A stretch of 33,398 bases of DNA from a virus. The stretch lies in UHGV virus genome UHGV-0115916; one strand, given 5' to 3'. The position numbers and the translations under genes were made by a program. Of this stretch, positions 2,471 through 33,348 are shown piece by piece. Position 1 is the stretch's first letter, and each line of letters starts with the position of its first letter. A model generated the notes under the pieces. It saw only the letters and a list, made by a program, of their open reading frames with translations, ran no database searches and was not told the DNA's origin.

Positions 2471-3973
<1,503 letters not shown>

Positions 3974-20943: not shown

Positions 20944-21470
20944 TAACGCCCCCTATGAAATGTTGTAATAGATTTAATAGGGCTACCTGCGTTTAGTCCT
21001 TTCATATCTGAAATTAAATCGTTTGCCCTTTTAACATAGGTAGAACGTAGGCGTAGAAGTACTTCGCTTGATTCATAAGTTAGGGCTTTATTTTGTATTG
21101 ATTGACTTAGTACACCACCACCTTTAATACGGTCTAGTGTAATTTGGTCAATATCTTTTATGATCTGAATTAGATCATTATATTCTGAGGCTTTACTAGT
21201 TGGATCAGTTACTTCAAATTGTTGTACACCGTATGCTTTAGGACTATCAATAATTGCAGTCCAGATACCCACGCCCCACGTATTAGTATCAATATCAGGG
21301 AATGGGTAAACATAGGAAGTTTTAACACCGTTAGGATCTATCAAATCGATATTAGTTCCTTCTGGATAGTTGAAAGTAATTGTTTCACCTTTGATAATAT
21401 CGCCTTTTAAATCAACTTTGCGAACAATTGCCATTTGTTTTATTTCCTTATTTAAAGAATCCTCCACCAC
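20943..21470 (-). CDS. Hypothetical protein in the lambda gpW position (possible head-tail joining protein)
   Basis: 175-aa ORF between the large terminase and portal genes; no motif recognised. Confidence 0.4.
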   Translation of the reverse strand: MVEDSLNKEIKQMAIVRKVDLKGDIIKGETITFNYPEGTNIDLIDPNGVKTSYVYPFPDIDTNTWGVGIWTAIIDSPKAYGVQQFEVTDPTSKASEYNDLIQIIKDIDQITLDRIKGGGVLSQSIQNKALTYESSEVLLRLRSTYVKRANDLISDMKGLNAGSPIKSITTFHRGR

Positions 21471-23376
21471 GTCTAGACGGACGTACTACACGACCTGTTT
21501 TTACTGGTGCTGGTTCTTCTTTATTTACTTCTTTATTTAGTCCTTTCTCTTTTTGTTTGGCGTTGAATTCGCGTAGTTTGCGGAATGGCTGATTACCTAA
21601 TTTAGATAGATACCAGTGGAAACATATTAAAGCGTAGTTAAGACAATCAAGCGTTTCATTCCTTGCTGAACTAATTTTCTTAACCCATACCCACGCCCCA
21701 GCTTTAATAACTCTCTTCTCACTTGATACCTGAATAAAGTAATCATCTGGTACTGAATGGCTGAAGTGTATTTGTACTTCACTACTATTACCACTATCCG
21801 ATACTGCACGGTTTAATAGTTGTCTAATATTACTTTTCCCTAAGTTTACGTTTAGGTTTATTAGACTATGACCACCAGCCGTAGAGCCTTTAAAGAGTGG
21901 GTTAGTATTTGAAGTACCGCCCTTGATTGGTTTAAAGATTGTCGATGCACTACAATAGCGATATACCGTACTGGTTGCGTTACCGTTCGAACTATCTACA
22001 AAACCTGCAAGTACTTTAAGTGGTTTACCGGATACGGTTTTAAAGTTAGTTTGTGAAAATGCTGTTAGCTTATTCCATGCGGGAGCCTCTATTTTAGTAC
22101 AGTCAATGCTATGAATACTGCGATGATCGAGTACATAAAGATTCTTTTCACTTATTCCTAACGTTGTTACTTCAAGGCGGTCTAACTGTTGGTCTACACC
22201 TAGTACGATTCCTTGACAGTCATCCGGCACGGTATCTATATCTATTGAACTATCACGTAGGTTTTCAAGTAATACTAAATCATGATCGGTATTCTCTTTA
22301 TCAATATAAGGAAGTCCTAAGACGTTATTGTAGAATGAGGCTAGATCAAATGTATAATGTGCTTCGGCAAAATCCTGTACTATTGATTTGATCGAGTTAA
22401 TCGGGGAGTATAAACGGCTAATATGATACCCCATGATATCCGTTACTTCTGGTACTGTAGCTATCCATTCACCCTTACGTATCATTCTTACACGTTCGGC
22501 TTCTGTGATTACATTATTACACTTAGGACATTGTAGTTTTGCTGTCTCTGCATCTGGAATGCGACGACGACCACCATCAATAATTTTCCAGTCGAATTTA
22601 ACATTTTCAAATACTAATTCATGTGCATGATCACAATGTGGGCAAGGTACGTAGAACTTCTGTTTATTACTTTGCTCGTACTGCTGAGTGATTAAATCAT
22701 TCTCATCAAGTGGTGTAGAACAAACCATAATAAGAGGGTTGCTAAAAGCCTTTGTACGCTGTTCTGCTAGCTTTAGTGGGTTCCCTTCATCACCATCTGC
22801 ATCTACGTTAGATATTTCGTCAAGAAAGATACGGGGGGCTGTCAAGCCTCGCAAATTCGCACTACTACCCAATGTTAGGAAGTACGTAAAAGTACCGTCT
22901 AAGTTTTGTTGTGTCTTATCATTATTAGTATAGTTTTTATCATTCTTATTACTGACTAGATTTTTAAGTACTGCACATGCTTCGATTACTGATTGCCATT
23001 TACCAGTACGAAACTTACTAGTAGTGCTGGCTGTTGCACCTGCGAAAATTAGATTGCTTGGATCATTTGCGAGGAAGTAGTACATACTATTCTGTAAAAC
23101 TGTTGTTTTGAGAAGTTGTGCACTGCTCATCAAAACTATTTTTCTAATTCTTGGATTAGTAATGTCATTTATGGGCTTGTGCTGAAAGGAAAATAACTTT
23201 ACGCGTTGTCCTTGTAGTTCCCCATCCGGGAATACTAAATTATTCTCTACCCATTCCGCTGGTAGTTGTCGCTTCGGAGGTAGGATCGACTTCGCCGCCC
23301 TCGTTAGTACCTTCATCATCTTCTGGTAGTTGTTCATCCGTGTATGTTCCTTCATATTCATAGCTACCAATTTCAT
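21448..23376 (-). CDS. Terminase large subunit (lambda gpA-like)
   Basis: 642 aa; VPCPHCDHAHELVF ... CPKCNN zinc-ribbon-like segment and DCLNYALICFHWYLSKL parallel lambda gpA (VACPHCGEEQYLKF; EALDCFVYALAAL); true start probably an internal Met (about 23316-23361) because the track ORF overlaps the small subunit gene by 137 nt. Confidence 0.85.
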   Translation of the reverse strand: MKLVAMNMKEHTRMNNYQKMMKVLTRAAKSILPPKRQLPAEWVENNLVFPDGELQGQRVKLFSFQHKPINDITNPRIRKIVLMSSAQLLKTTVLQNSMYYFLANDPSNLIFAGATASTTSKFRTGKWQSVIEACAVLKNLVSNKNDKNYTNNDKTQQNLDGTFTYFLTLGSSANLRGLTAPRIFLDEISNVDADGDEGNPLKLAEQRTKAFSNPLIMVCSTPLDENDLITQQYEQSNKQKFYVPCPHCDHAHELVFENVKFDWKIIDGGRRRIPDAETAKLQCPKCNNVITEAERVRMIRKGEWIATVPEVTDIMGYHISRLYSPINSIKSIVQDFAEAHYTFDLASFYNNVLGLPYIDKENTDHDLVLLENLRDSSIDIDTVPDDCQGIVLGVDQQLDRLEVTTLGISEKNLYVLDHRSIHSIDCTKIEAPAWNKLTAFSQTNFKTVSGKPLKVLAGFVDSSNGNATSTVYRYCSASTIFKPIKGGTSNTNPLFKGSTAGGHSLINLNVNLGKSNIRQLLNRAVSDSGNSSEVQIHFSHSVPDDYFIQVSSEKRVIKAGAWVWVKKISSARNETLDCLNYALICFHWYLSKLGNQPFRKLREFNAKQKEKGLNKEVNKEEPAPVKTGRVVRPSRRGGGFFK

Positions 23377-23812
23377 TTAATTGATCATCTATTTTTTCCT
23401 GTAGTTTGATTTTTAATTCTAATGCGTCTGCTGATTCGAATAATTCAACATAACTTGACGCGGGAATACTTCTTAATACTTGGCGTAGTTGGTAGAAGTA
23501 TTGGGATAAAGTTTGCTGTACTACTGCTACTGGTATTAGCTCGCCGGATTGCTGACGTAATTCCATTTCTTTAATATCAGCTTCTGCTTCTAACTTACGT
23601 AGTGTTGCTTTTTGTATTTGGCCTTTTGTATCACCGCTTCTTAGTGGTTCGATTACGTTTGCAAGTAACCAATCGTCAACTAATTTCTTAGGCCAGGTGA
23701 TATCTAAACCTTTACCAGACCATATACGGCTAACAGTAGAATGCTCTACGCCGAAACGATCCGCGATTTCTTGCCACGTGTAGCGGGTTCCATCGTCTTT
23801 AATTTTTGCCAT
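23240..23812 (-). CDS. Terminase small subunit (Nu1-like, N-terminal HTH)
   Basis: Start reassigned to ATG 23812 (MAKIKDDG...) with AAGGA RBS; YTWQEIADRFGVEHSTVSRIWSGKG helix-turn-helix; acidic C-terminal tail; directly upstream of the large subunit. Confidence 0.75.
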   Translation of the reverse strand: MAKIKDDGTRYTWQEIADRFGVEHSTVSRIWSGKGLDITWPKKLVDDWLLANVIEPLRSGDTKGQIQKATLRKLEAEADIKEMELRQQSGELIPVAVVQQTLSQYFYQLRQVLRSIPASSYVELFESADALELKIKLQEKIDDQLNEIGSYEYEGTYTDEQLPEDDEGTNEGGEVDPTSEATTTSGMGRE

Positions 23813-23891
23813 TTTGTTTAGTCCTTGTTTAGTACAATAAACCTGTACTTTCCTTTTATTTCGTTTTGTTTGTTTTCGATTAGAAATCCCA

Positions 23892-23949
23892 CGAATTTTA
23901 AATACAATTCGCGGCGAAAACTCGATTTTTTTGTTCTCAATTAGAGAAC
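23892..23949. promoter_or_regulatory. Palindromic elements upstream of the terminase small subunit gene (candidate late operator / packaging-site region)
   Basis: CGAATT-N8-AATTCG (23892-23911) and perfect 17-bp palindrome GTTCTCAATTAGAGAAC (23933-23949) in the 229-bp intergenic region. Confidence 0.3.
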
Positions 23950-24041
23950 CTAAAGTTAAAACTTCACTCACGATTTTAATTTTTGATTTGTAATAATATT
24001 TATATTATCATTGTATTATAAAGTAACAACAAGGACATGTA

Positions 24042-24980
24042 ATGAAACACATAATCCAAACCAGAAGTGTTTTTAAGGATATCGAAGACTCTTTATTTAG
24101 TGAGTTGCATTCAGCTAAGACAAGTATCAAAATCTGTGTTGCATGGATAAACTTTGAGCTTTTTGAAAATATATTATTATCTAAGGCTAAAGAAGGTGTT
24201 GAAGTTGAGATATTAGTTAATAATGATTATATCAATACAAAATTTCTTGATAAAATATCTGATAATATAAAACCATTAATTAATCTAATTAAAAACCCTA
24301 TTAGTAACCACTTAATGCATCATAAATTTTGTATCATTGATGATGAAGTTTTGATTACTGGCAGTTATAATTGGTCAAAAAGAGCACCATATCATTATGA
24401 AAATATAATAATCATCCGTAATGATTTCAATCTAATAATGCAATTTAAACATGAGTTTGCAGATTTAAAATACATGGGTGCAATGCCAAGTACAGAATTT
24501 AATGCATTTAAAGTAACCAAAAATCTCAATAGATTTGTTGTTGGCACATATAGTTCATCTGTGGGGATATATGAAACCGTCACATTGCAGTTATGGGAAA
24601 TTGATATTAACAACTTAACTTTTGAACGACATGGCGAAATGGATATCCCTTTCTTCAATTATTTATTAGATATTAATACTGATGATCATTATCTTATTGA
24701 TGAAAAAGAAAGGTACATCGATCTATATGATCAAGAGCGTAGACAGATGGAGACTATCCAAAGTCATTTTAGAAGATTAAATTGTTCAATTCATGCTTAT
24801 GGAACAGCAATAATAGCGAACGAGAGCGAATACCTTGAAGGTTATGAAGAGCCTATTCGTGTAATTCACTTCAATTGGATAGATATGCGATTAAGCAAAG
24901 TATTACCCTCTTCTTTGCCCGCAACTATGGAACTTGAAGGATTATGGCACGAAATATATGCTCCAAATGGATATATTTAA
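24042..24980 (+). CDS. Phospholipase-D-family (single HKD motif) nuclease with uncharacterised C-terminal domain
   Basis: 312 aa; exact H-x-K-x4-D-x6-G-S-x-N motif at aa 93-110 (HHKFCIIDDEVLITGSYN); AAGGA RBS 6 nt before the ATG; AT-rich gene. Confidence 0.8.
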   Translation: MKHIIQTRSVFKDIEDSLFSELHSAKTSIKICVAWINFELFENILLSKAKEGVEVEILVNNDYINTKFLDKISDNIKPLINLIKNPISNHLMHHKFCIIDDEVLITGSYNWSKRAPYHYENIIIIRNDFNLIMQFKHEFADLKYMGAMPSTEFNAFKVTKNLNRFVVGTYSSSVGIYETVTLQLWEIDINNLTFERHGEMDIPFFNYLLDINTDDHYLIDEKERYIDLYDQERRQMETIQSHFRRLNCSIHAYGTAIIANESEYLEGYEEPIRVIHFNWIDMRLSKVLPSSLPATMELEGLWHEIYAPNGYI

Positions 24981-25012
24981 ATAATATTCTATAATTAATG
25001 AGGAACGGTATT

Positions 25013-25372
25013 ATGTCTAATTATCCTATACCACTTAGCCTTGAATTTAATAGTCAAGATACTGCTAATATCATTTGTAGTTATCTAGAAAAAAATCATC
25101 AAGATTCTATTTTAAAAACCATATTAAATATAGATTTGTCTTTTATTGATTATCGTGCACAATCTTCTAATTACTTTATAATTAATGACGTTGAATATAT
25201 TGGAGATAATAATTATATTTTATATTATAAAATAAACTACTACATTTATAATCTCTGTAAAGATATGGATATTGATGATGACTACGAGACTTCGATAAAT
25301 TTTACATTGAATAATGGATTTTTAGTATTTGATATAATTGATTGTGAAAGAAATATATCAGATGAAATATAG
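25013..25372 (+). CDS. Hypothetical acidic small protein, partner of the PLD-family nuclease
   Basis: 120 aa from ATG 25013 (GAGGA RBS 8 nt upstream; the track start 24998 lacks an RBS); Asp/Glu-rich (DMDIDDDYE, DIIDCERNISDEI); 32 nt downstream of the nuclease gene. Confidence 0.5.
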   Translation: MSNYPIPLSLEFNSQDTANIICSYLEKNHQDSILKTILNIDLSFIDYRAQSSNYFIINDVEYIGDNNYILYYKINYYIYNLCKDMDIDDDYETSINFTLNNGFLVFDIIDCERNISDEI

Positions 25373-25436
25373 CCATATTTAATTATCACTTAAGGATTTC
25401 AACATCAGGATTTAAATTTTAATTATATATAATAGT

Positions 25437-25468
25437 AAAAGCCTAATACTCATCAGTAATAGGCTTTT
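25437..25468. terminator. Bidirectional terminator hairpin between convergent accessory operons
   Basis: 9-bp stem AAAAGCCTA (25437-25445) / TAGGCTTTT (25460-25468) with a 14-nt loop; A/T-rich flanks. Confidence 0.5.
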
Positions 25469-25475
25469 ACCTAAA

Positions 25476-25895
25476 TTATAATTGATTCAATCGATAGATA
25501 TTAGATGTACTTGAGCCATCGCTATACACCTCTGATATAGTCAGTTTGTTTCCATCCACTTTGTATTTTACTACACTATCAGCCGGATCATTTCTCCAAC
25601 GACCTGAGCTATCTGGATTGTTTGATGCCCACATAACTTGATCATCAATCAGTTTGCACTTGATAGCCCATCTTGTGCTGTCATCTTTACGTATGTAATG
25701 GACATAGGCTACATCAGATTGAATCTTATCAAGCTTCATTATTTTATGATCTCGCCCAAACATAGATGCAGCCGCCGCTTTGCAGATCTGACCAACATTA
25801 GCTTCCGCTGCGTAGAGTGAAGAACTGAACAATAATGGCACAATCACTAATAACTTTATCATCGCATATCGTCTCGTAGTAAAAATTAATTTCAC
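25476..25895 (-). CDS. Exported (signal-peptide) protein of unknown function
   Basis: 139 aa; GTG start at 25895 with AAGGA RBS; N-terminus MKLIFTTRRYAMIKLLVIVPLLFSSSLYA-AEA is a classical signal peptide; 1-nt gap to the upstream HNH gene. Confidence 0.6.
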   Translation of the reverse strand: MKLIFTTRRYAMIKLLVIVPLLFSSSLYAAEANVGQICKAAAASMFGRDHKIMKLDKIQSDVAYVHYIRKDDSTRWAIKCKLIDDQVMWASNNPDSSGRWRNDPADSVVKYKVDGNKLTISEVYSDGSSTSNIYRLNQL

Positions 25896-25896
25896 C

Positions 25897-26622
25897 TTAT
25901 TTCCTTAATAACTTTTTTAATTCCTCAACTGTCTTCATTTCTTTTCCAATATGAATCATTGCATGACAGTTTGCACATAAAGGTATAAGATCTTCAATTG
26001 GGTCAATCTTATAGCGTTTACCAATAGTATGTAGTGGCACTATATGATGAACATGAATATAATTTTTTCCGTGACTTCCATACACTTCTTCAAAATTAAA
26101 ACCACAGACACCACAACTCAAACCATGTTTATCGATACATTCTTTTCTAGCCTTTGGATCTCTCTCATAGTACGTAGCAATCCTTTGATGCTTTTCACCT
26201 TCATAGTATTCACTTTCTATTTCAGGTGTGAATGAATAGTAATCTTCATCGGTGGCATACCAATCTCCATCTTTTTTAGTAAGATATTTTCGTACTATTT
26301 TCTTTTCAAAATGTTTAATCCTAGCAGCACCATTTTCAGTTGTTTTCTCATGCCTAGTCTGGCTAAAGGTGAAAAGACTATACCCTTCATGTAAAATTTT
26401 ATCTATGTGTTCGATAGATTGTGTATAACCATTTTTTTTGTGTCCATTTACATTTTCACGCCAACTGCTAGCCAAGATTAAAACTTTCTTACCATCATCT
26501 GATCTAAGATCTTCCCAAGCTCCAAAAATTATTTTTTTGTTGATCTCATCAATAAATGACCAACTCCAGTTATCATTTTTACATGTAGCACCCAAAGAAC
26601 GCATGAACTCTGTTCGGGACAT
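25897..26622 (-). CDS. HNH nuclease (restriction / McrA-like) with N-terminal domain of unknown function
   Basis: 241 aa; C-terminal HNH motif CGVCGFNFEEVYGSHGKNYIHVHHIVPLHTIG ... LIPLCANCHAMIH; AAGGA RBS; N-terminal ~150 aa Trp-rich domain not identified. Confidence 0.75.
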   Translation of the reverse strand: MSRTEFMRSLGATCKNDNWSWSFIDEINKKIIFGAWEDLRSDDGKKVLILASSWRENVNGHKKNGYTQSIEHIDKILHEGYSLFTFSQTRHEKTTENGAARIKHFEKKIVRKYLTKKDGDWYATDEDYYSFTPEIESEYYEGEKHQRIATYYERDPKARKECIDKHGLSCGVCGFNFEEVYGSHGKNYIHVHHIVPLHTIGKRYKIDPIEDLIPLCANCHAMIHIGKEMKTVEELKKLLRK

Positions 26623-26825: not shown

Positions 26826-27536
26826 ATGCTTAATCTCACTAAATGTAATTTACTTTTGATCGGCACTGTAATAACTCTATTACTGATAGCTATTCTTGTA
26901 GGTATAAAAATACTATTCTCCGATTCTAATCCAGATCTAGGCAGCTTAGCAGATTGGATCAGTTCTGTATCCGCAATAGGGACTCTTGGTGTTGCCTGGT
27001 TAGCTTATAGTAAAGCTGATGACTACATTGACAAAAAAGCTTCGGAAAGAGGAATTGATATCCTTGTCAATATGGTAACTGAATCATTCGTTGCTTATTT
27101 CAACTCACTAAATGAAACTAATTTCCATGCTTCAAAACTTGAAAATAAAATGATATTGATTGGCTTGGTTGATGAAAAAGTAGATTGCAATATTGAACTA
27201 CAATCATTAAGAGAAAAAATCATAACTCTCTTCGAAAATAGTCATCAAATAGACAAAGATTTTATAAAAATGAAAATAATGAAAATATCAAAACCCAGTG
27301 ATATTTTCTACGATCCAGTAACTAGCGATGATACATTGCAAGCGTTAAAATTAGCATTTCATAAACTGAACACTGAAATTTGTGAGAATGAAAATCAATA
27401 CAACATTAATAATGATTTACTTAGCGAAAATATCAACTTTATTAAAAACACTACCGAAAAGTTAGCCCATGATATTCGCAAACAGTTCTTTACCTCGCCG
27501 AATACTTATAAAGATTATTTTGGAAATCTGTCTTAA
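26826..27536 (+). CDS. Signal-anchored membrane protein (paralogue of the 1056..1796 product)
   Basis: 236 aa; N-terminal helix LLLIGTVITLLLIAILVGIKILF, DLGSLADWISS motif, second hydrophobic stretch, then a ~170-aa soluble domain. Confidence 0.6.
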   Translation: MLNLTKCNLLLIGTVITLLLIAILVGIKILFSDSNPDLGSLADWISSVSAIGTLGVAWLAYSKADDYIDKKASERGIDILVNMVTESFVAYFNSLNETNFHASKLENKMILIGLVDEKVDCNIELQSLREKIITLFENSHQIDKDFIKMKIMKISKPSDIFYDPVTSDDTLQALKLAFHKLNTEICENENQYNINNDLLSENINFIKNTTEKLAHDIRKQFFTSPNTYKDYFGNLS

Positions 27537-27581
27537 ATTATACGCTATCAAATATTCCATCAACATAAACAAGGAAAGTAG

Positions 27582-28280
27582 ATGACTACTCTCACTAGAA
27601 CTTATAATTTACCAAATGAGCTAGTTGAACATTTTTCAAATAACATTGTCTATTTCGAAAAACTTTTGTCTAAGGATTTTTCTGACTTAAATGTTAATGT
27701 AGCACCAGAAGACATTAAGAAAATAGAAAAATCTTTCGAAGTATCACATAGAATACGTGATTTCGAAATCAATCTGTATTGGCAAAGACTGAACTTCCTT
27801 TGGGCCATTACAGCATTGCTATTTGCTGGATGGGGAACATTGATCTTTAAAATCATCGAATTCAATGGAGGGGAAGCACCTTATATTATATTTGCCGCCT
27901 TATCATTTCTCTCACTTATAGGTGGGATTGTAACTATATTCACAAGCTTTATCATTGAGGCAGGTAAGCATTGGCAAAAGGTTTGGGAGTTTCATGTTCA
28001 CGCTCTTGAACCTTTTGTATCAGGTCATTTATATGCAATTCAGTTTTCTTATAAAAATAAAAAAAAGGCATCTATAAGTAGAAGCGTAGAAACTTTCAAT
28101 TATGCTTTGCTGTTTCTTTGGGCATGTTCAGCAGTATTCGCCGCAATCATCCCTTCACAAATAGGGAACGGTCTTGCAGGCATTATCCAATTAGTTATTT
28201 CTCTTCTTATAGTTGGTGCTTTTGTTTATATACGCAACTCTGTTACTAAAAAGGAGTCTATTAAAATTCAGCTTGATTAA
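27582..28280 (+). CDS. Integral membrane protein with about four predicted helices
   Basis: 232 aa; ~70-aa soluble N-terminus, then hydrophobic segments (LNFLWAITALLFAGWGTLIF; YIIFAALSFLSLIGGIVTIFTSFII; ALLFLWACSAVFAAIIP; LAGIIQLVISLLIVGAFVYI); AAGGAAAG RBS; 45 nt downstream of the 26826..27536 gene. Confidence 0.6.
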   Translation: MTTLTRTYNLPNELVEHFSNNIVYFEKLLSKDFSDLNVNVAPEDIKKIEKSFEVSHRIRDFEINLYWQRLNFLWAITALLFAGWGTLIFKIIEFNGGEAPYIIFAALSFLSLIGGIVTIFTSFIIEAGKHWQKVWEFHVHALEPFVSGHLYAIQFSYKNKKKASISRSVETFNYALLFLWACSAVFAAIIPSQIGNGLAGIIQLVISLLIVGAFVYIRNSVTKKESIKIQLD

Positions 28281-29986: not shown

Positions 29987-30472
29987 TTAGTTGTCTTTTG
30001 CAACCTTTGTATATGTCTGTCTATGTGTACTTCTATTGTACTTTTCATTCATGAATAGCGTGATATTGATACATGACATTCCACCAGTGTATAACGCCTT
30101 TACTTCATCTTTTTGTACTGGTGTTAGACGTGGTTCATTTTGTTTCTTACGTACTGCCTTACATGAATTTTCACTATATGTAATCCACTGCAAATTAGAA
30201 ATATTGTTGTCTCGTTTATCACTATTGATATTATCTACAACTAATCTTTTATTTGTTTGGGGTTTACTTAGAAATGTTTCTGCTACGAGTCTGTGTGTCT
30301 CTATCGGATATGATTTAGATTTCCCATCCTCATAAACAGTTAAAGTAACTTTATAGTACCCATTACTTTTACTATAACTCTGTGTTAGATAATTACCCGT
30401 TTTAGTATTGCGTACTTCTCCGTTACTACTTACTTCATAATTTACATATTGTGTTTGTTTCCATAATGTCAT
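29987..30472 (-). CDS. HNH homing endonuclease-like protein (NUMOD4 + HNH_3-type)
   Basis: 161 aa; YEVSSNGEVRN...NGYY.V.L...GKSKSY.IHRLVAETFL (NUMOD4-like) followed by VVDNINSDKRDNNISNLQWITYSEN (HNH_3-like). Confidence 0.75.
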   Translation of the reverse strand: MTLWKQTQYVNYEVSSNGEVRNTKTGNYLTQSYSKSNGYYKVTLTVYEDGKSKSYPIETHRLVAETFLSKPQTNKRLVVDNINSDKRDNNISNLQWITYSENSCKAVRKKQNEPRLTPVQKDEVKALYTGGMSCINITLFMNEKYNRSTHRQTYTKVAKDN

Positions 30473-31449: not shown

Positions 31450-33348
31450 CTAGATCTGGTCTATCCGATAACGCTCTATGAACTCTTTACGTGTTAAACC
31501 AGTCGATTCTAATGCAGTGGCTATATCCTTTGGAACTCGACCATTCAAGGCAATACTATATGTATTGCCTTCATACACAATGTCTACTCGATCATACTTT
31601 CCGGTATTAGGCCAGAATGAAGCCCCACTTATTTCACTATAACCAACCACTTCTAACATCTCATTAGCAGTATTGAACAGATCTAAATAACTTTGTTCAA
31701 TTTTATCAAGTTGTTCCACTGCTTTATTAAATAATGGCAGATTGCTAGTGGTAAGAAATCCTTCATCTCTGATACTTACATTATCAACAGAAGAAAATTC
31801 AACTTTAAACGCCCAATGTGGTTTTCTATCAGTTCCACCAAAAACTAACCATTCATCTTTAAAATGATACTTTATTTTTATCGTTATACACCCATCAGTT
31901 TTATCAACTATAACACTTTCAATAATAGAACTAATTACTTTCCTTATTTTATTTCTATCCGTATCCTGCATATTTGTAAAAACCGCCCACTGAATAAGAA
32001 TCATAAATTCATTTATATCGACTTCTAGAGATCCTTTACCTTTCAGTGAATATAAGCGTTCTTTTAACTTATCAACTTCCAGAACAGTCTTTTTACGTTC
32101 CATATCAAACGCATTTAGTTGAACTGCTAACGCACTAACATTAGGAGCAATTGCTATTGCTTGAGCCATGTTTGTTATGCGAGATTCCAGATCAGTTATC
32201 AACGTTTCTTTTCTACTGAGGTCTTCTTCTATCACAGTTGTGTCAATACCATCTTTTAGTCTCTTATTCATGTAACCGATCAGTAGTGAAATGATCGTAC
32301 AGTGTTCAACTAATTGTGCTGATATAGACCAGCCAGAACAGTTTTTTTGTAAGTGAACCCCATTAGTACAAATATAGCGAGCACTGCCATGATTCATGAA
32401 AGAATGCATAGTTCCTCCACACTTGCTACACCGTAACACCTGCAACCCTGATAACAATTTAATTTCTTCTACTTTGTCTTTCTTAGCCTTGAAGTTGTTT
32501 TGCTGCTTACGTTCAGCCAAGGTTAAATACTCTGCTTCATCTTTGCATAACCATGGATAGTAGTTATCAAGTTTGTAAGTAGCACCACCAGCATTGATAG
32601 TCCTTTCACCAATCAACGCCCGATTATCACGCATCTTTTTCAATACCTGATAATCCCATTCTTTACCCTTTAAACCATTAGGATATTTTTTATCGAGATG
32701 ACGCTTTACTGTATAGATGCCATTCCCATCTAAAAACATGTCTATAGCTTCGCGAGCGATACTCCAGTAAACGGGATGTTCTTTTACTGCTTCATATTGC
32801 GAACCTGAATCATCTATCCAAAATGGATGGCGACCAACTGACTTAATGTTTACTGGCAACCCTGCTTTATGACGTTCGACCAAGGCAACAACATTGCCTA
32901 TGGTCCTGTTAGATTTCGTTTCTGATTCTTCATTGCCACGGATAAACATCAGAATAGAAATCATCAGATCAGTAGGGTTTTGTCTGATGGATTCTCTGTT
33001 ATAGACCTTCCGATCCATTCCTGTGACAATCGTTAGCCCTAAACCAATCAATTCAAGGAATAAACGAAGTGCTTCATCCACCTGATCGCGTGATAGTCGG
33101 TCGAGGTTTTCACAGTAAAGCCAAGAGTCAGACGGTATAGCATTATTTTTTACGGCGTCTATGAAGTCACCCAACTTACCCGCCCTATTTTTTCCCCTGT
33201 AAGCACTCGTGCCAGGTTCCAAAATTTCAACCATTTCAAGCCCCGCTTCTTCAGCATAGGCTTTCGCTGCCGCTACCTGCCTGTTCTTGGTTGTTCCTTT
33301 TTCTTGGCGATCACTTGACCACCTGATATAGCTATAAAGTTGCGGCAT
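31450..33348 (-). CDS. Large serine recombinase (phage integrase)
   Basis: 632 aa; N-terminal resolvase-type catalytic domain (YIRWSSDRQ with the serine nucleophile; ...RLSRD...), recombinase domain, Cys-rich zinc-ribbon segment (CSKCGG...C...C) and long C-terminal coiled-coil-like region. Confidence 0.85.
   Translation of the reverse strand: MPQLYSYIRWSSDRQEKGTTKNRQVAAAKAYAEEAGLEMVEILEPGTSAYRGKNRAGKLGDFIDAVKNNAIPSDSWLYCENLDRLSRDQVDEALRLFLELIGLGLTIVTGMDRKVYNRESIRQNPTDLMISILMFIRGNEESETKSNRTIGNVVALVERHKAGLPVNIKSVGRHPFWIDDSGSQYEAVKEHPVYWSIAREAIDMFLDGNGIYTVKRHLDKKYPNGLKGKEWDYQVLKKMRDNRALIGERTINAGGATYKLDNYYPWLCKDEAEYLTLAERKQQNNFKAKKDKVEEIKLLSGLQVLRCSKCGGTMHSFMNHGSARYICTNGVHLQKNCSGWSISAQLVEHCTIISLLIGYMNKRLKDGIDTTVIEEDLSRKETLITDLESRITNMAQAIAIAPNVSALAVQLNAFDMERKKTVLEVDKLKERLYSLKGKGSLEVDINEFMILIQWAVFTNMQDTDRNKIRKVISSIIESVIVDKTDGCITIKIKYHFKDEWLVFGGTDRKPHWAFKVEFSSVDNVSIRDEGFLTTSNLPLFNKAVEQLDKIEQSYLDLFNTANEMLEVVGYSEISGASFWPNTGKYDRVDIVYEGNTYSIALNGRVPKDIATALESTGLTRKEFIERYRIDQI

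Follow-up and report, generated by a model that had tools for sequence, protein, structure and literature searches.

A prophage-borne phospholipase D-family protein with a private C-terminal domain is a candidate single-gene defence nuclease

Nuc of the Salmonella plasmid pKM101 (PDB 1BYR/1BYS) and NucT of Helicobacter pylori (6EHI) are exported, stand-alone nucleases of ~155–180 aa in the phospholipase D (PLD) superfamily, and in Nuc-type enzymes the single HKD motif of each chain implies a homodimer with a composite active site. The eukaryotic enzyme Zucchini, or MitoPLD (PLD6; PDB 4GGJ, 4GEL), is anchored in the mitochondrial membrane and cuts single-stranded RNA. PLD nucleases with interchangeable C-terminal sensor domains (BfiI, SauUSI and the END nucleases) are emerging as a class of single-gene defence, and the PLD nuclease of Mokosh is a proven defence effector whose active-site mutants lose defence. 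The END nucleases, which neither PADLOC nor DefenseFinder recognised when they were found, consist of a single gene with no methyltransferase, whose product joins an N-terminal PLD catalytic domain to a non-catalytic C-terminal sensor, an inactivated EndoIII, that sets specificity (PMC12191111). We analysed a 312-aa PLD-family protein, here called PLD-CTD, that is encoded in a prophage represented by virus genome UHGV-0115916 (33,398 nt, the whole of which is referred to as the window).

We hold with moderate confidence that PLD-CTD is an uncatalogued single-gene defence nuclease that protects lysogens and carries a private regulatory or sensor domain. This reading is the best supported because of the gene's slot in the prophage, its defence neighbours, its absence from deposited phages and the precedents among PLD enzymes. 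The gene occupies positions 24042–24980 of the plus strand (ORF list; stop codon counted), with a Shine-Dalgarno-like AAGGA, read directly from the sequence, 6 nt 5' of its start codon (24031–24035, plus strand). Its N-terminal domain (aa 1–147; 24042–24482, plus strand) is of the Nuc/Zucchini type and contains the HKD catalytic motif HHKFCIIDDEVLITGSYN (aa 93–110; 24318–24371, plus strand), the single match to H-x-K-x4-D-x6-GS-x-N across all six frames of the window. Pfam PLDc_2 matched aa 19–141 with 72.1 bits (cut-off 27; E 5e-20), and the motif residues H93, K95, D100, G107, S108 and N110, together with E120 and N121, were invariant in 51 of the 51 full-length homologues that make up our family alignment (1275 pairs). 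The reading frame and motif are thus where an earlier note, made from the DNA letters of the window, had placed them. Motif, profile score and fold together make the 312-aa protein a member of the single-HKD nuclease clade of the PLD superfamily, and because the catalytic residues are invariant across the family, the N-terminal domain looks catalytically competent. Fold and profile comparisons put this domain closest to Nuc, NucT and Zucchini.

The AlphaFold2 model of the 312-aa protein has two domains (pLDDT 93.4, pTM 0.89). We found 462 homologues at E <= 0.001, the full-length ones being ~300–325 aa, and the gene appears to be under constraint, with a dN/dS of 0.09–0.23 against the homologous loci L001 and L135 (L-numbers denote the loci compared). 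The exact 312-aa protein is present on 75 contigs from E. coli, Shigella sonnei, several Citrobacter species and Enterobacter kobei, where every record is annotated as "phospholipase D-like domain-containing protein" or hypothetical and nothing more. The nearest relatives of the N-terminal domain (36–44% identity; L061–L134) are mostly Bacteroidota proteins, which occur as ~190-aa stand-alone forms and as ~450–460-aa forms with other C-terminal regions, some related proteins having a DnaJ domain; this suggests that the PLD subfamily is itself modular. A few neighbours in these loci look defence-like, namely a Pedobacter protein of 1340 aa that has a SIR2-like motif and, in Mangrovimonas, a vWA-like gene.

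The rest of the protein forms a family-specific acidic domain (aa 148–312; 24483–24977, plus strand). The earlier note had recognised nothing in it, and our searches agree: no match covering these ~165 aa was found in Pfam, PADLOC, PHROG or NCBIfam, and the model of the domain matched no solved fold among PDB structures. The predicted order of secondary-structure elements, b-b-b-a-b-a-b-a with a long first helix, describes a mixed alpha/beta domain and would be compatible with an RNase H-like layout, which we leave as an unproven resemblance for want of a conserved acidic catalytic set. Searching 1.84e9 representative proteins with a domain profile gave 63 hits, essentially all of them ~300–325-aa proteins with the domain at about residues 150–310, or fragments of such proteins. 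Candidate stand-alone copies were rejected, as the short hits proved to be fragments that begin inside the PLD domain. Because the hits essentially all share one architecture, the C-terminal domain is private to PLD-CTD proteins and not a sensor module of the promiscuous kind. We also considered whether it could be a degenerate second PLD domain forming an intramolecular pseudo-dimer. This was excluded, since two-domain PLD structures align over only ~160 residues of the full model, the C-terminal model matches no PLD structure and BLASTP of the C-terminal against the N-terminal half gave no hit.

Across the family the C-terminal domain is acidic (median isoelectric point, pI, 5.2; net negative in 48 of 51 members), has no conserved residues of catalytic type and is conserved far less than the nuclease domain, mean pairwise identity being 27.5% against 44% for the N-terminal domain, which was the higher of the two in 1275/1275 pairs. 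In the predicted model it packs tightly against the PLD domain. Acidity, lack of catalytic-type conservation and this packing suggest that the domain regulates, senses or autoinhibits and does not recognise DNA. Outside Enterobacterales, most members show at the first strands a C...C ... W-x-C-x4/5-H pattern that resembles, as far as sequence can tell, an ancestral zinc site. All four Cys/His ligands are lost in 15 of 15 members of the Enterobacterales prophage clade, the window's protein included (aa ~156–195; nt ~24507–24626), and the fold of the ligand-less domain is still predicted at a pLDDT above 90.

In the window the PLD gene diverges from a putative small terminase subunit gene, terS (23240–23971, minus strand; weak DUF1441), beyond which lie a gpA-type large terminase gene (21448–23376; GpA_ATPase/GpA_nuclease) and portal and capsid genes. 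An AT-rich unit next to the packaging genes had been described in the earlier note, and the unit at 23972–25475 does indeed have a GC content of 27% (PLD gene, 30%; the small ORF that follows it, 22%) against 36.8% for the window, itself far under the GC content typical of Enterobacteriaceae chromosomes, even though E. coli, Shigella, Citrobacter and Pseudocitrobacter all have the identical PLD protein on record. Homologues of terS stand beside the PLD gene in L006, L009/L027, L026, L028 and L135, and this terS-adjacent slot holds the PLD gene in six diverged prophage lineages; in L026 it also holds an Uzume homologue (UzuA, 5e-53). Known or candidate defence genes were found within ~3 genes of PLD-CTD in 6 of ~15 independent contexts, a raw count without a background control. 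An Acinetobacter homologue in a region that resembles integrative and conjugative elements (ICEs) lies directly 5' of a PD-T7-5 homologue (E 6.8e-124), and a Pseudomonas homologue directly 3' of a SIR2 protein (PDC-S25/ThsA-like). Others adjoin a PglW-like protein and a type I restriction-modification (R-M) system in Photobacterium or a PDC-M14A-like gene on an Aliarcobacter plasmid, or lie near PDC-M60A in Psychromonas. No full-length homologue was found in 50,697 deposited phage genomes, which fits cargo of prophages and islands better than a gene of the lytic cycle or of counter-defence. The Acinetobacter arrangement deserves separate mention: PLD-CTD is 44 bp 5' of the PD-T7-5 homologue on the same strand (L012 7004–8065; L029 6001–7098), in a region that also holds a ParB gene and a 1276-aa helicase, and it could be that two single-gene systems happen to adjoin here or that the genes function as a pair.

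The analysis establishes the anatomy of the locus, its conservation, the narrow distribution of the C-terminal domain, the separability of the PLD gene from the small ORF behind it and the presence of defence-gene neighbours. We infer dimerisation, nuclease activity, a defence function and a sensor role, and would assemble them as follows. PLD-CTD would be a self-contained, single-gene accessory nuclease of a temperate phage. By analogy with Nuc, NucT and Zucchini, its PLD domain would homodimerise, building one active site from two HKD motifs, and would cleave phosphodiester bonds without metal through a phospho-histidine intermediate. The C-terminal domain may sense a phage cue, more likely protein than DNA because of the domain's charge; alternatively, it may act by autoinhibition and hold the nuclease back from the nucleic acid of the host. 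Carried in an AT-rich, oppositely oriented unit of a variable slot beside the terminase genes, the gene would serve to protect the lysogen against other phages. We put forward only tentatively the more specific possibility of an undescribed single-gene immune nuclease family in which a private acidic alpha/beta domain, ancestrally zinc-binding, senses a phage protein and gates a Zucchini/Nuc-like nuclease, the zinc site having been dispensed with in the prophage-borne Enterobacterales clade. In a bolder variant, PLD-CTD would cut single-stranded RNA, not DNA, as Zucchini does.

The PLD gene is followed, after a 32-nt gap without a hairpin, by a small ORF of 119 aa (25013–25372, plus strand; an alternative ATG at 24998 would give 124 aa). 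Direct reading of the sequence places a Shine-Dalgarno GAGGA (25000–25004, plus strand) 8 nt 5' of the ATG at 25013, a position that favours the 119-aa start. The product is very acidic, with a pI of 4.05 and 20 D+E against 6 K+R, and belongs to a family of 20 clusters (119–125 aa; all named members Enterobacterales) with the invariant core DLSFID.RA / YYIYNLCKDMDI. With a dN/dS of 0.12–0.18, this is a real, conserved gene. The protein had no match in Pfam, PADLOC, NCBIfam or PDB and a weak one to phrog_13663 (E 6e-5). Acidity, spacing and ribosome-binding site are as first described; the proposal that nuclease and acidic partner form a two-gene system fared worse, since conserved co-occurrence is lacking.

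The two genes are linked only where PLD identity is at least 79% (the window, L001–3, L020–25, L055 and L135), and no PLD locus under that level has the small ORF. PLD-CTD homologues at 33–54% identity occur without it in 13 other contexts, several clearly monocistronic. In Pectobacterium prophages the PLD gene is in the same slot and the next gene is convergent; in L009/L027, L026 and L057 it stands alone between opposite-strand genes. The small ORF is likewise missing beside PLD-CTD in two metagenomic prophages (L026, L028), an Enterobacter prophage (L006), Klebsiella, Pseudomonas, Acinetobacter, Psychromonas, Photobacterium and several metagenome-assembled genomes, and on the Aliarcobacter plasmid. 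Homologues of the small ORF (39–60% identity) in turn occur without a PLD gene in L015–19 and L137–141, where one adjoins a serine recombinase gene in Enterobacter roggenkampii, one is 5' of the gene for a RelA/SpoT-domain protein in Proteus, one is directly 3' of the cI repressor gene in E. cloacae and others are on metagenomic contigs. A gene for a protein whose N-terminus is hydrophobic and apparently two-transmembrane (two-TM) follows at 10 bp or one gene further in three of these PLD-less contexts, and DUF2971 and 8xMP genes are often near. The PLD-less loci have in common a conserved upstream region, and because this is missing in the window, the small ORF there probably depends on PLD transcription and rides on the PLD transcript. 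Since several contexts hold the PLD gene without the small ORF and several the reverse, we conclude that the pairing of the two is a lineage-specific juxtaposition in a mosaic accessory island and not a conserved two-component system. In this lineage only, the 119-aa gene is inherited together with the PLD gene and probably co-transcribed with it; most likely it travels in the same hotspot as a passenger of its own.

These distributions bear on two alternatives in which PLD-CTD does not act alone. The 119-aa protein might be the cognate inhibitor, antitoxin or DNA mimic of the nuclease, released or degraded on infection. The same strand and close spacing, the strong ribosome-binding site, the extreme acidity and the likely dependence on PLD transcription would all suit such a pair, as would the parallel divergence of the two products from those of L135 (79% amino acid identity for PLD, 77% for the small ORF) and the position of small-ORF homologues just 5' of other possible effectors, namely the two-TM protein at 10 bp and the RelA/SpoT-domain protein. 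We nevertheless judge the pairing unlikely, given the 13 contexts without the small ORF, a small-ORF family that is narrower than the PLD-CTD family and a recurrent neighbour that is the two-TM protein, not PLD; a local inhibitor is possible, not favoured. A larger system is conceivable too, since the window encodes, within 26826–28280 on the plus strand, an apparently two-TM protein of 236 aa (26826–27536), which BLASTP links between loci assign to the two-TM family, and a 232-aa 8xMP protein (PF24838). PLD, small ORF, two-TM and 8xMP genes would then be one membrane-associated system split by an inverted block containing an HNH gene. PLD occurs with 8xMP in the window, L135, L027 and L028 and with two-TM-family proteins in the window, L135, L027 and L006, and L139 has the small ORF, two-TM and 8xMP genes together. 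Every pairwise link is broken somewhere, however: in L139 the small ORF accompanies the membrane genes but PLD is missing, PLD-CTD adjoins other, unrelated genes at those loci outside Enterobacterales that were examined, and the variation in gene order and content is like that of a mosaic hotspot. We give this arrangement little credence.

The defence-nuclease reading has its own difficulties. We found no experiment or publication on the PLD-CTD family in the literature, and PADLOC offers nothing for the protein apart from weak generic PLD matches, and nothing at all for the small protein. Prophage hotspots, plasmids and islands are generally rich in defence genes, which confounds the association with neighbours, and several of the defence-like neighbours are unvalidated PDC candidates. 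Neither expression in the lysogen nor an own promoter finds support in the promoter scan, which returned 16 promoter-like sites against 15.7 expected in shuffled sequence. Among close relatives the C-terminal domain has a dN/dS of 0.09–0.19 against 0.20–0.23 for the N-terminal domain; purifying selection on the two is similar, with no sign of diversifying selection. The substrate may be DNA, RNA or lipid. Finally, the gene has been kept beside terS while terS diverged to 30–39% identity, and this retention could reflect a conserved phage function rather than cargo. PLD-CTD might on that account be a terminase-side resident that benefits the phage in its own cycle, by degrading host nucleic acid or in a packaging-linked function, and the six lineages sharing the slot, with PLD identities of 41–79%, are compatible with long co-descent. 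We think this improbable: the gene runs opposite to the late operon and has a distinctly lower GC content, deposited phage genomes lack it, its distant homologues are in non-phage settings (plasmid, ICE-like region, defence islands) and prophages L139–141 of the same group have the membrane-gene set without PLD. The lack of full-length homologues in the phage records also speaks against a counter-defence effector, a phosphodiesterase that would destroy a nucleic acid or nucleotide signal of host immunity. In its favour are the versatility of PLD enzymes as phosphodiesterases, the location of the gene on a phage and an acidic domain that could bind a host protein, yet the chromosomal, plasmid and island homologues adjoin defence genes, the usual signature of defence, and we know of no anti-defence protein of this type, so that such a role seems very unlikely. 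We attach scarcely any probability to a non-nuclease, be it a PLD that acts on lipids or, like FAM83, a scaffold that has the PLD fold but no catalysis: the invariant HKD, GSxN and E120 set argues against a pseudoenzyme, no membrane-targeting segment is evident and the closest bacterial relatives, Nuc and NucT, are nucleases.

Some features of the locus and of its relatives are of interest in their own right. A hairpin at 25435–25470, between the convergent plus- and minus-strand units (strand undefined), has a 4-nt loop and 16-nt arms that are 94% complementary, and its folding energy is −17.6 kcal/mol (z −5.8 vs shuffles). The terminator hairpin that the earlier note placed after the small ORF is present as a stable structure and is likely a bidirectional terminator; a simple terminator scan did not call it. 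The inverted block beyond it, on the minus strand, encodes a 139-aa protein with a signal-peptide-like N-terminus (25476–25895) and a 241-aa HNH endonuclease (25897–26622; PF01844, E 3.6e-8), the C-terminal HNH region of which is matched by the PADLOC type IV restriction model mREase_IV (E 1.6e-9). These genes are co-oriented with the terminase genes, and the HNH protein could be an HK97-like terminase-associated HNH or another defence gene. Elsewhere in the window, all on the minus strand, are genes for an HNH_3/NUMOD4 homing-endonuclease-like protein (29987–30472), a SegE-like GIY-YIG endonuclease (3046–3483) and a 632-aa large serine recombinase (31450–33348); no repressor or replication gene was recognised among the window ORFs scanned. 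A mobile cassette with bounding repeats was considered and rejected, the repeats found being AT-rich and at chance level, and no non-coding RNA was found in the island. The window prophage has a near-identical counterpart in Pseudocitrobacter faecalis DSM 27453, and no close DNA relatives were found in deposited phages or complete E. coli genomes.

The small acidic gene recurs in a prophage accessory set with a two-TM protein that has a variable C-terminal part, DUF2971 and 8xMP (PF24838), seen at 26826–28280 of the window, L139 5001–7938, L137 2423–4524 and L015 5001–6601. DUF2971 of this set matches the PADLOC candidate PDC-S31. The order in E. cloacae is cI, small ORF, two-TM protein, DUF2971 and 8xMP, on the same strand as cI and in a position like that of lambda rexAB, and the set may itself constitute a membrane module that is expressed in lysogeny. 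In the Proteus prophage, the gene that lies 260 bp 3' of a small-ORF homologue (L019 5621–6769), with tail-fibre genes on one side and the integrase gene on the other, encodes a RelA/SpoT-domain protein of 382 aa bearing a (Thr-Asp)n repeat (MSTDTDTDTDTD...) at the N-terminus, and its size and position recall fused toxSAS defence proteins. A third small family is shuffled in the same hotspot gene pool: a 136-aa gene just 5' of the PLD gene in Enterobacter pseudoroggenkampii (L006 5534–5944) has a product homologous (35% identity, E 3e-23) to that of a 143-aa gene just 3' of the small-ORF homologue in E. roggenkampii (L015 5371–5802).

If our reading is correct, the PLD-CTD family adds to the single-gene PLD defence class a sensor or regulator fold with no known relative. 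An acidic C-terminal domain is unusual in this class and speaks for protein sensing or autoinhibition more than for reading DNA directly. With only 312 codons, and without change in prophages of E. coli, Shigella and Citrobacter, the gene is readily testable, and the zinc-site and zinc-free clades offer a natural structure-function contrast. The analysis also corrects a tempting but unsupported inference of a partner from operon structure, the earlier observation being confirmed and its interpretation partly supported, and draws attention to the slot next to terS as a defence hotspot in this prophage group. We regard PLD-CTD as a good, cheap experimental candidate rather than a conceptual surprise.

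Compared with the described systems, PLD-CTD is ~25% identical to Nuc and NucT and differs from them in that a signal peptide is not evident and a further C-terminal domain of 165 aa is present, of which Zucchini/MitoPLD has no counterpart either. BfiI and NgoAVII, which are type IIS restriction endonucleases (PDB 2C1L, 4RCT), resemble it in combining an N-terminal single-HKD PLD domain with a non-catalytic C-terminal domain. A BfiI-like R-M enzyme was rejected as an identity, since the N-terminal domain is nearer Nuc, the C-terminal domain is unmatched and, as the earlier note had remarked, no methyltransferase is adjacent: none was found among the flanking ORFs, whether in the window or at near-identical loci, the structural-gene block at 5.5–21 kb not having been scanned ORF by ORF. 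Matches to Mokosh MkoC/MkoB, DISARM DrmC, Dpd DpdK and SauUSI are confined to the PLD core (aa 16–141), those of the Mokosh, DISARM and Dpd PLD models being partial and of 20–31 bits; these systems have no counterpart of the C-terminal domain, and PLD-CTD has no helicase domain or partner gene, with no helicase gene within ±6 kb. The END nucleases share with it a single gene without a methyltransferase, an N-terminal PLD domain and a non-catalytic C-terminal domain. Their N-terminal domain, however, is BfiI-like where that of PLD-CTD is Nuc-like, and their C-terminal domain is an EndoIII/OGG1 homologue where that of PLD-CTD is acidic alpha/beta; an END identity was rejected, as no EndoIII/OGG1 structure was among the PDB neighbours of the C-terminal domain and no such Pfam match was obtained. 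PLD-CTD is therefore neither BfiI-like nor an END nuclease, and it is no component of Mokosh. It belongs with the known class of PLD nucleases that carry an accessory domain and is taken to work like them, and its C-terminal domain is new, private and uncatalogued in the libraries searched.

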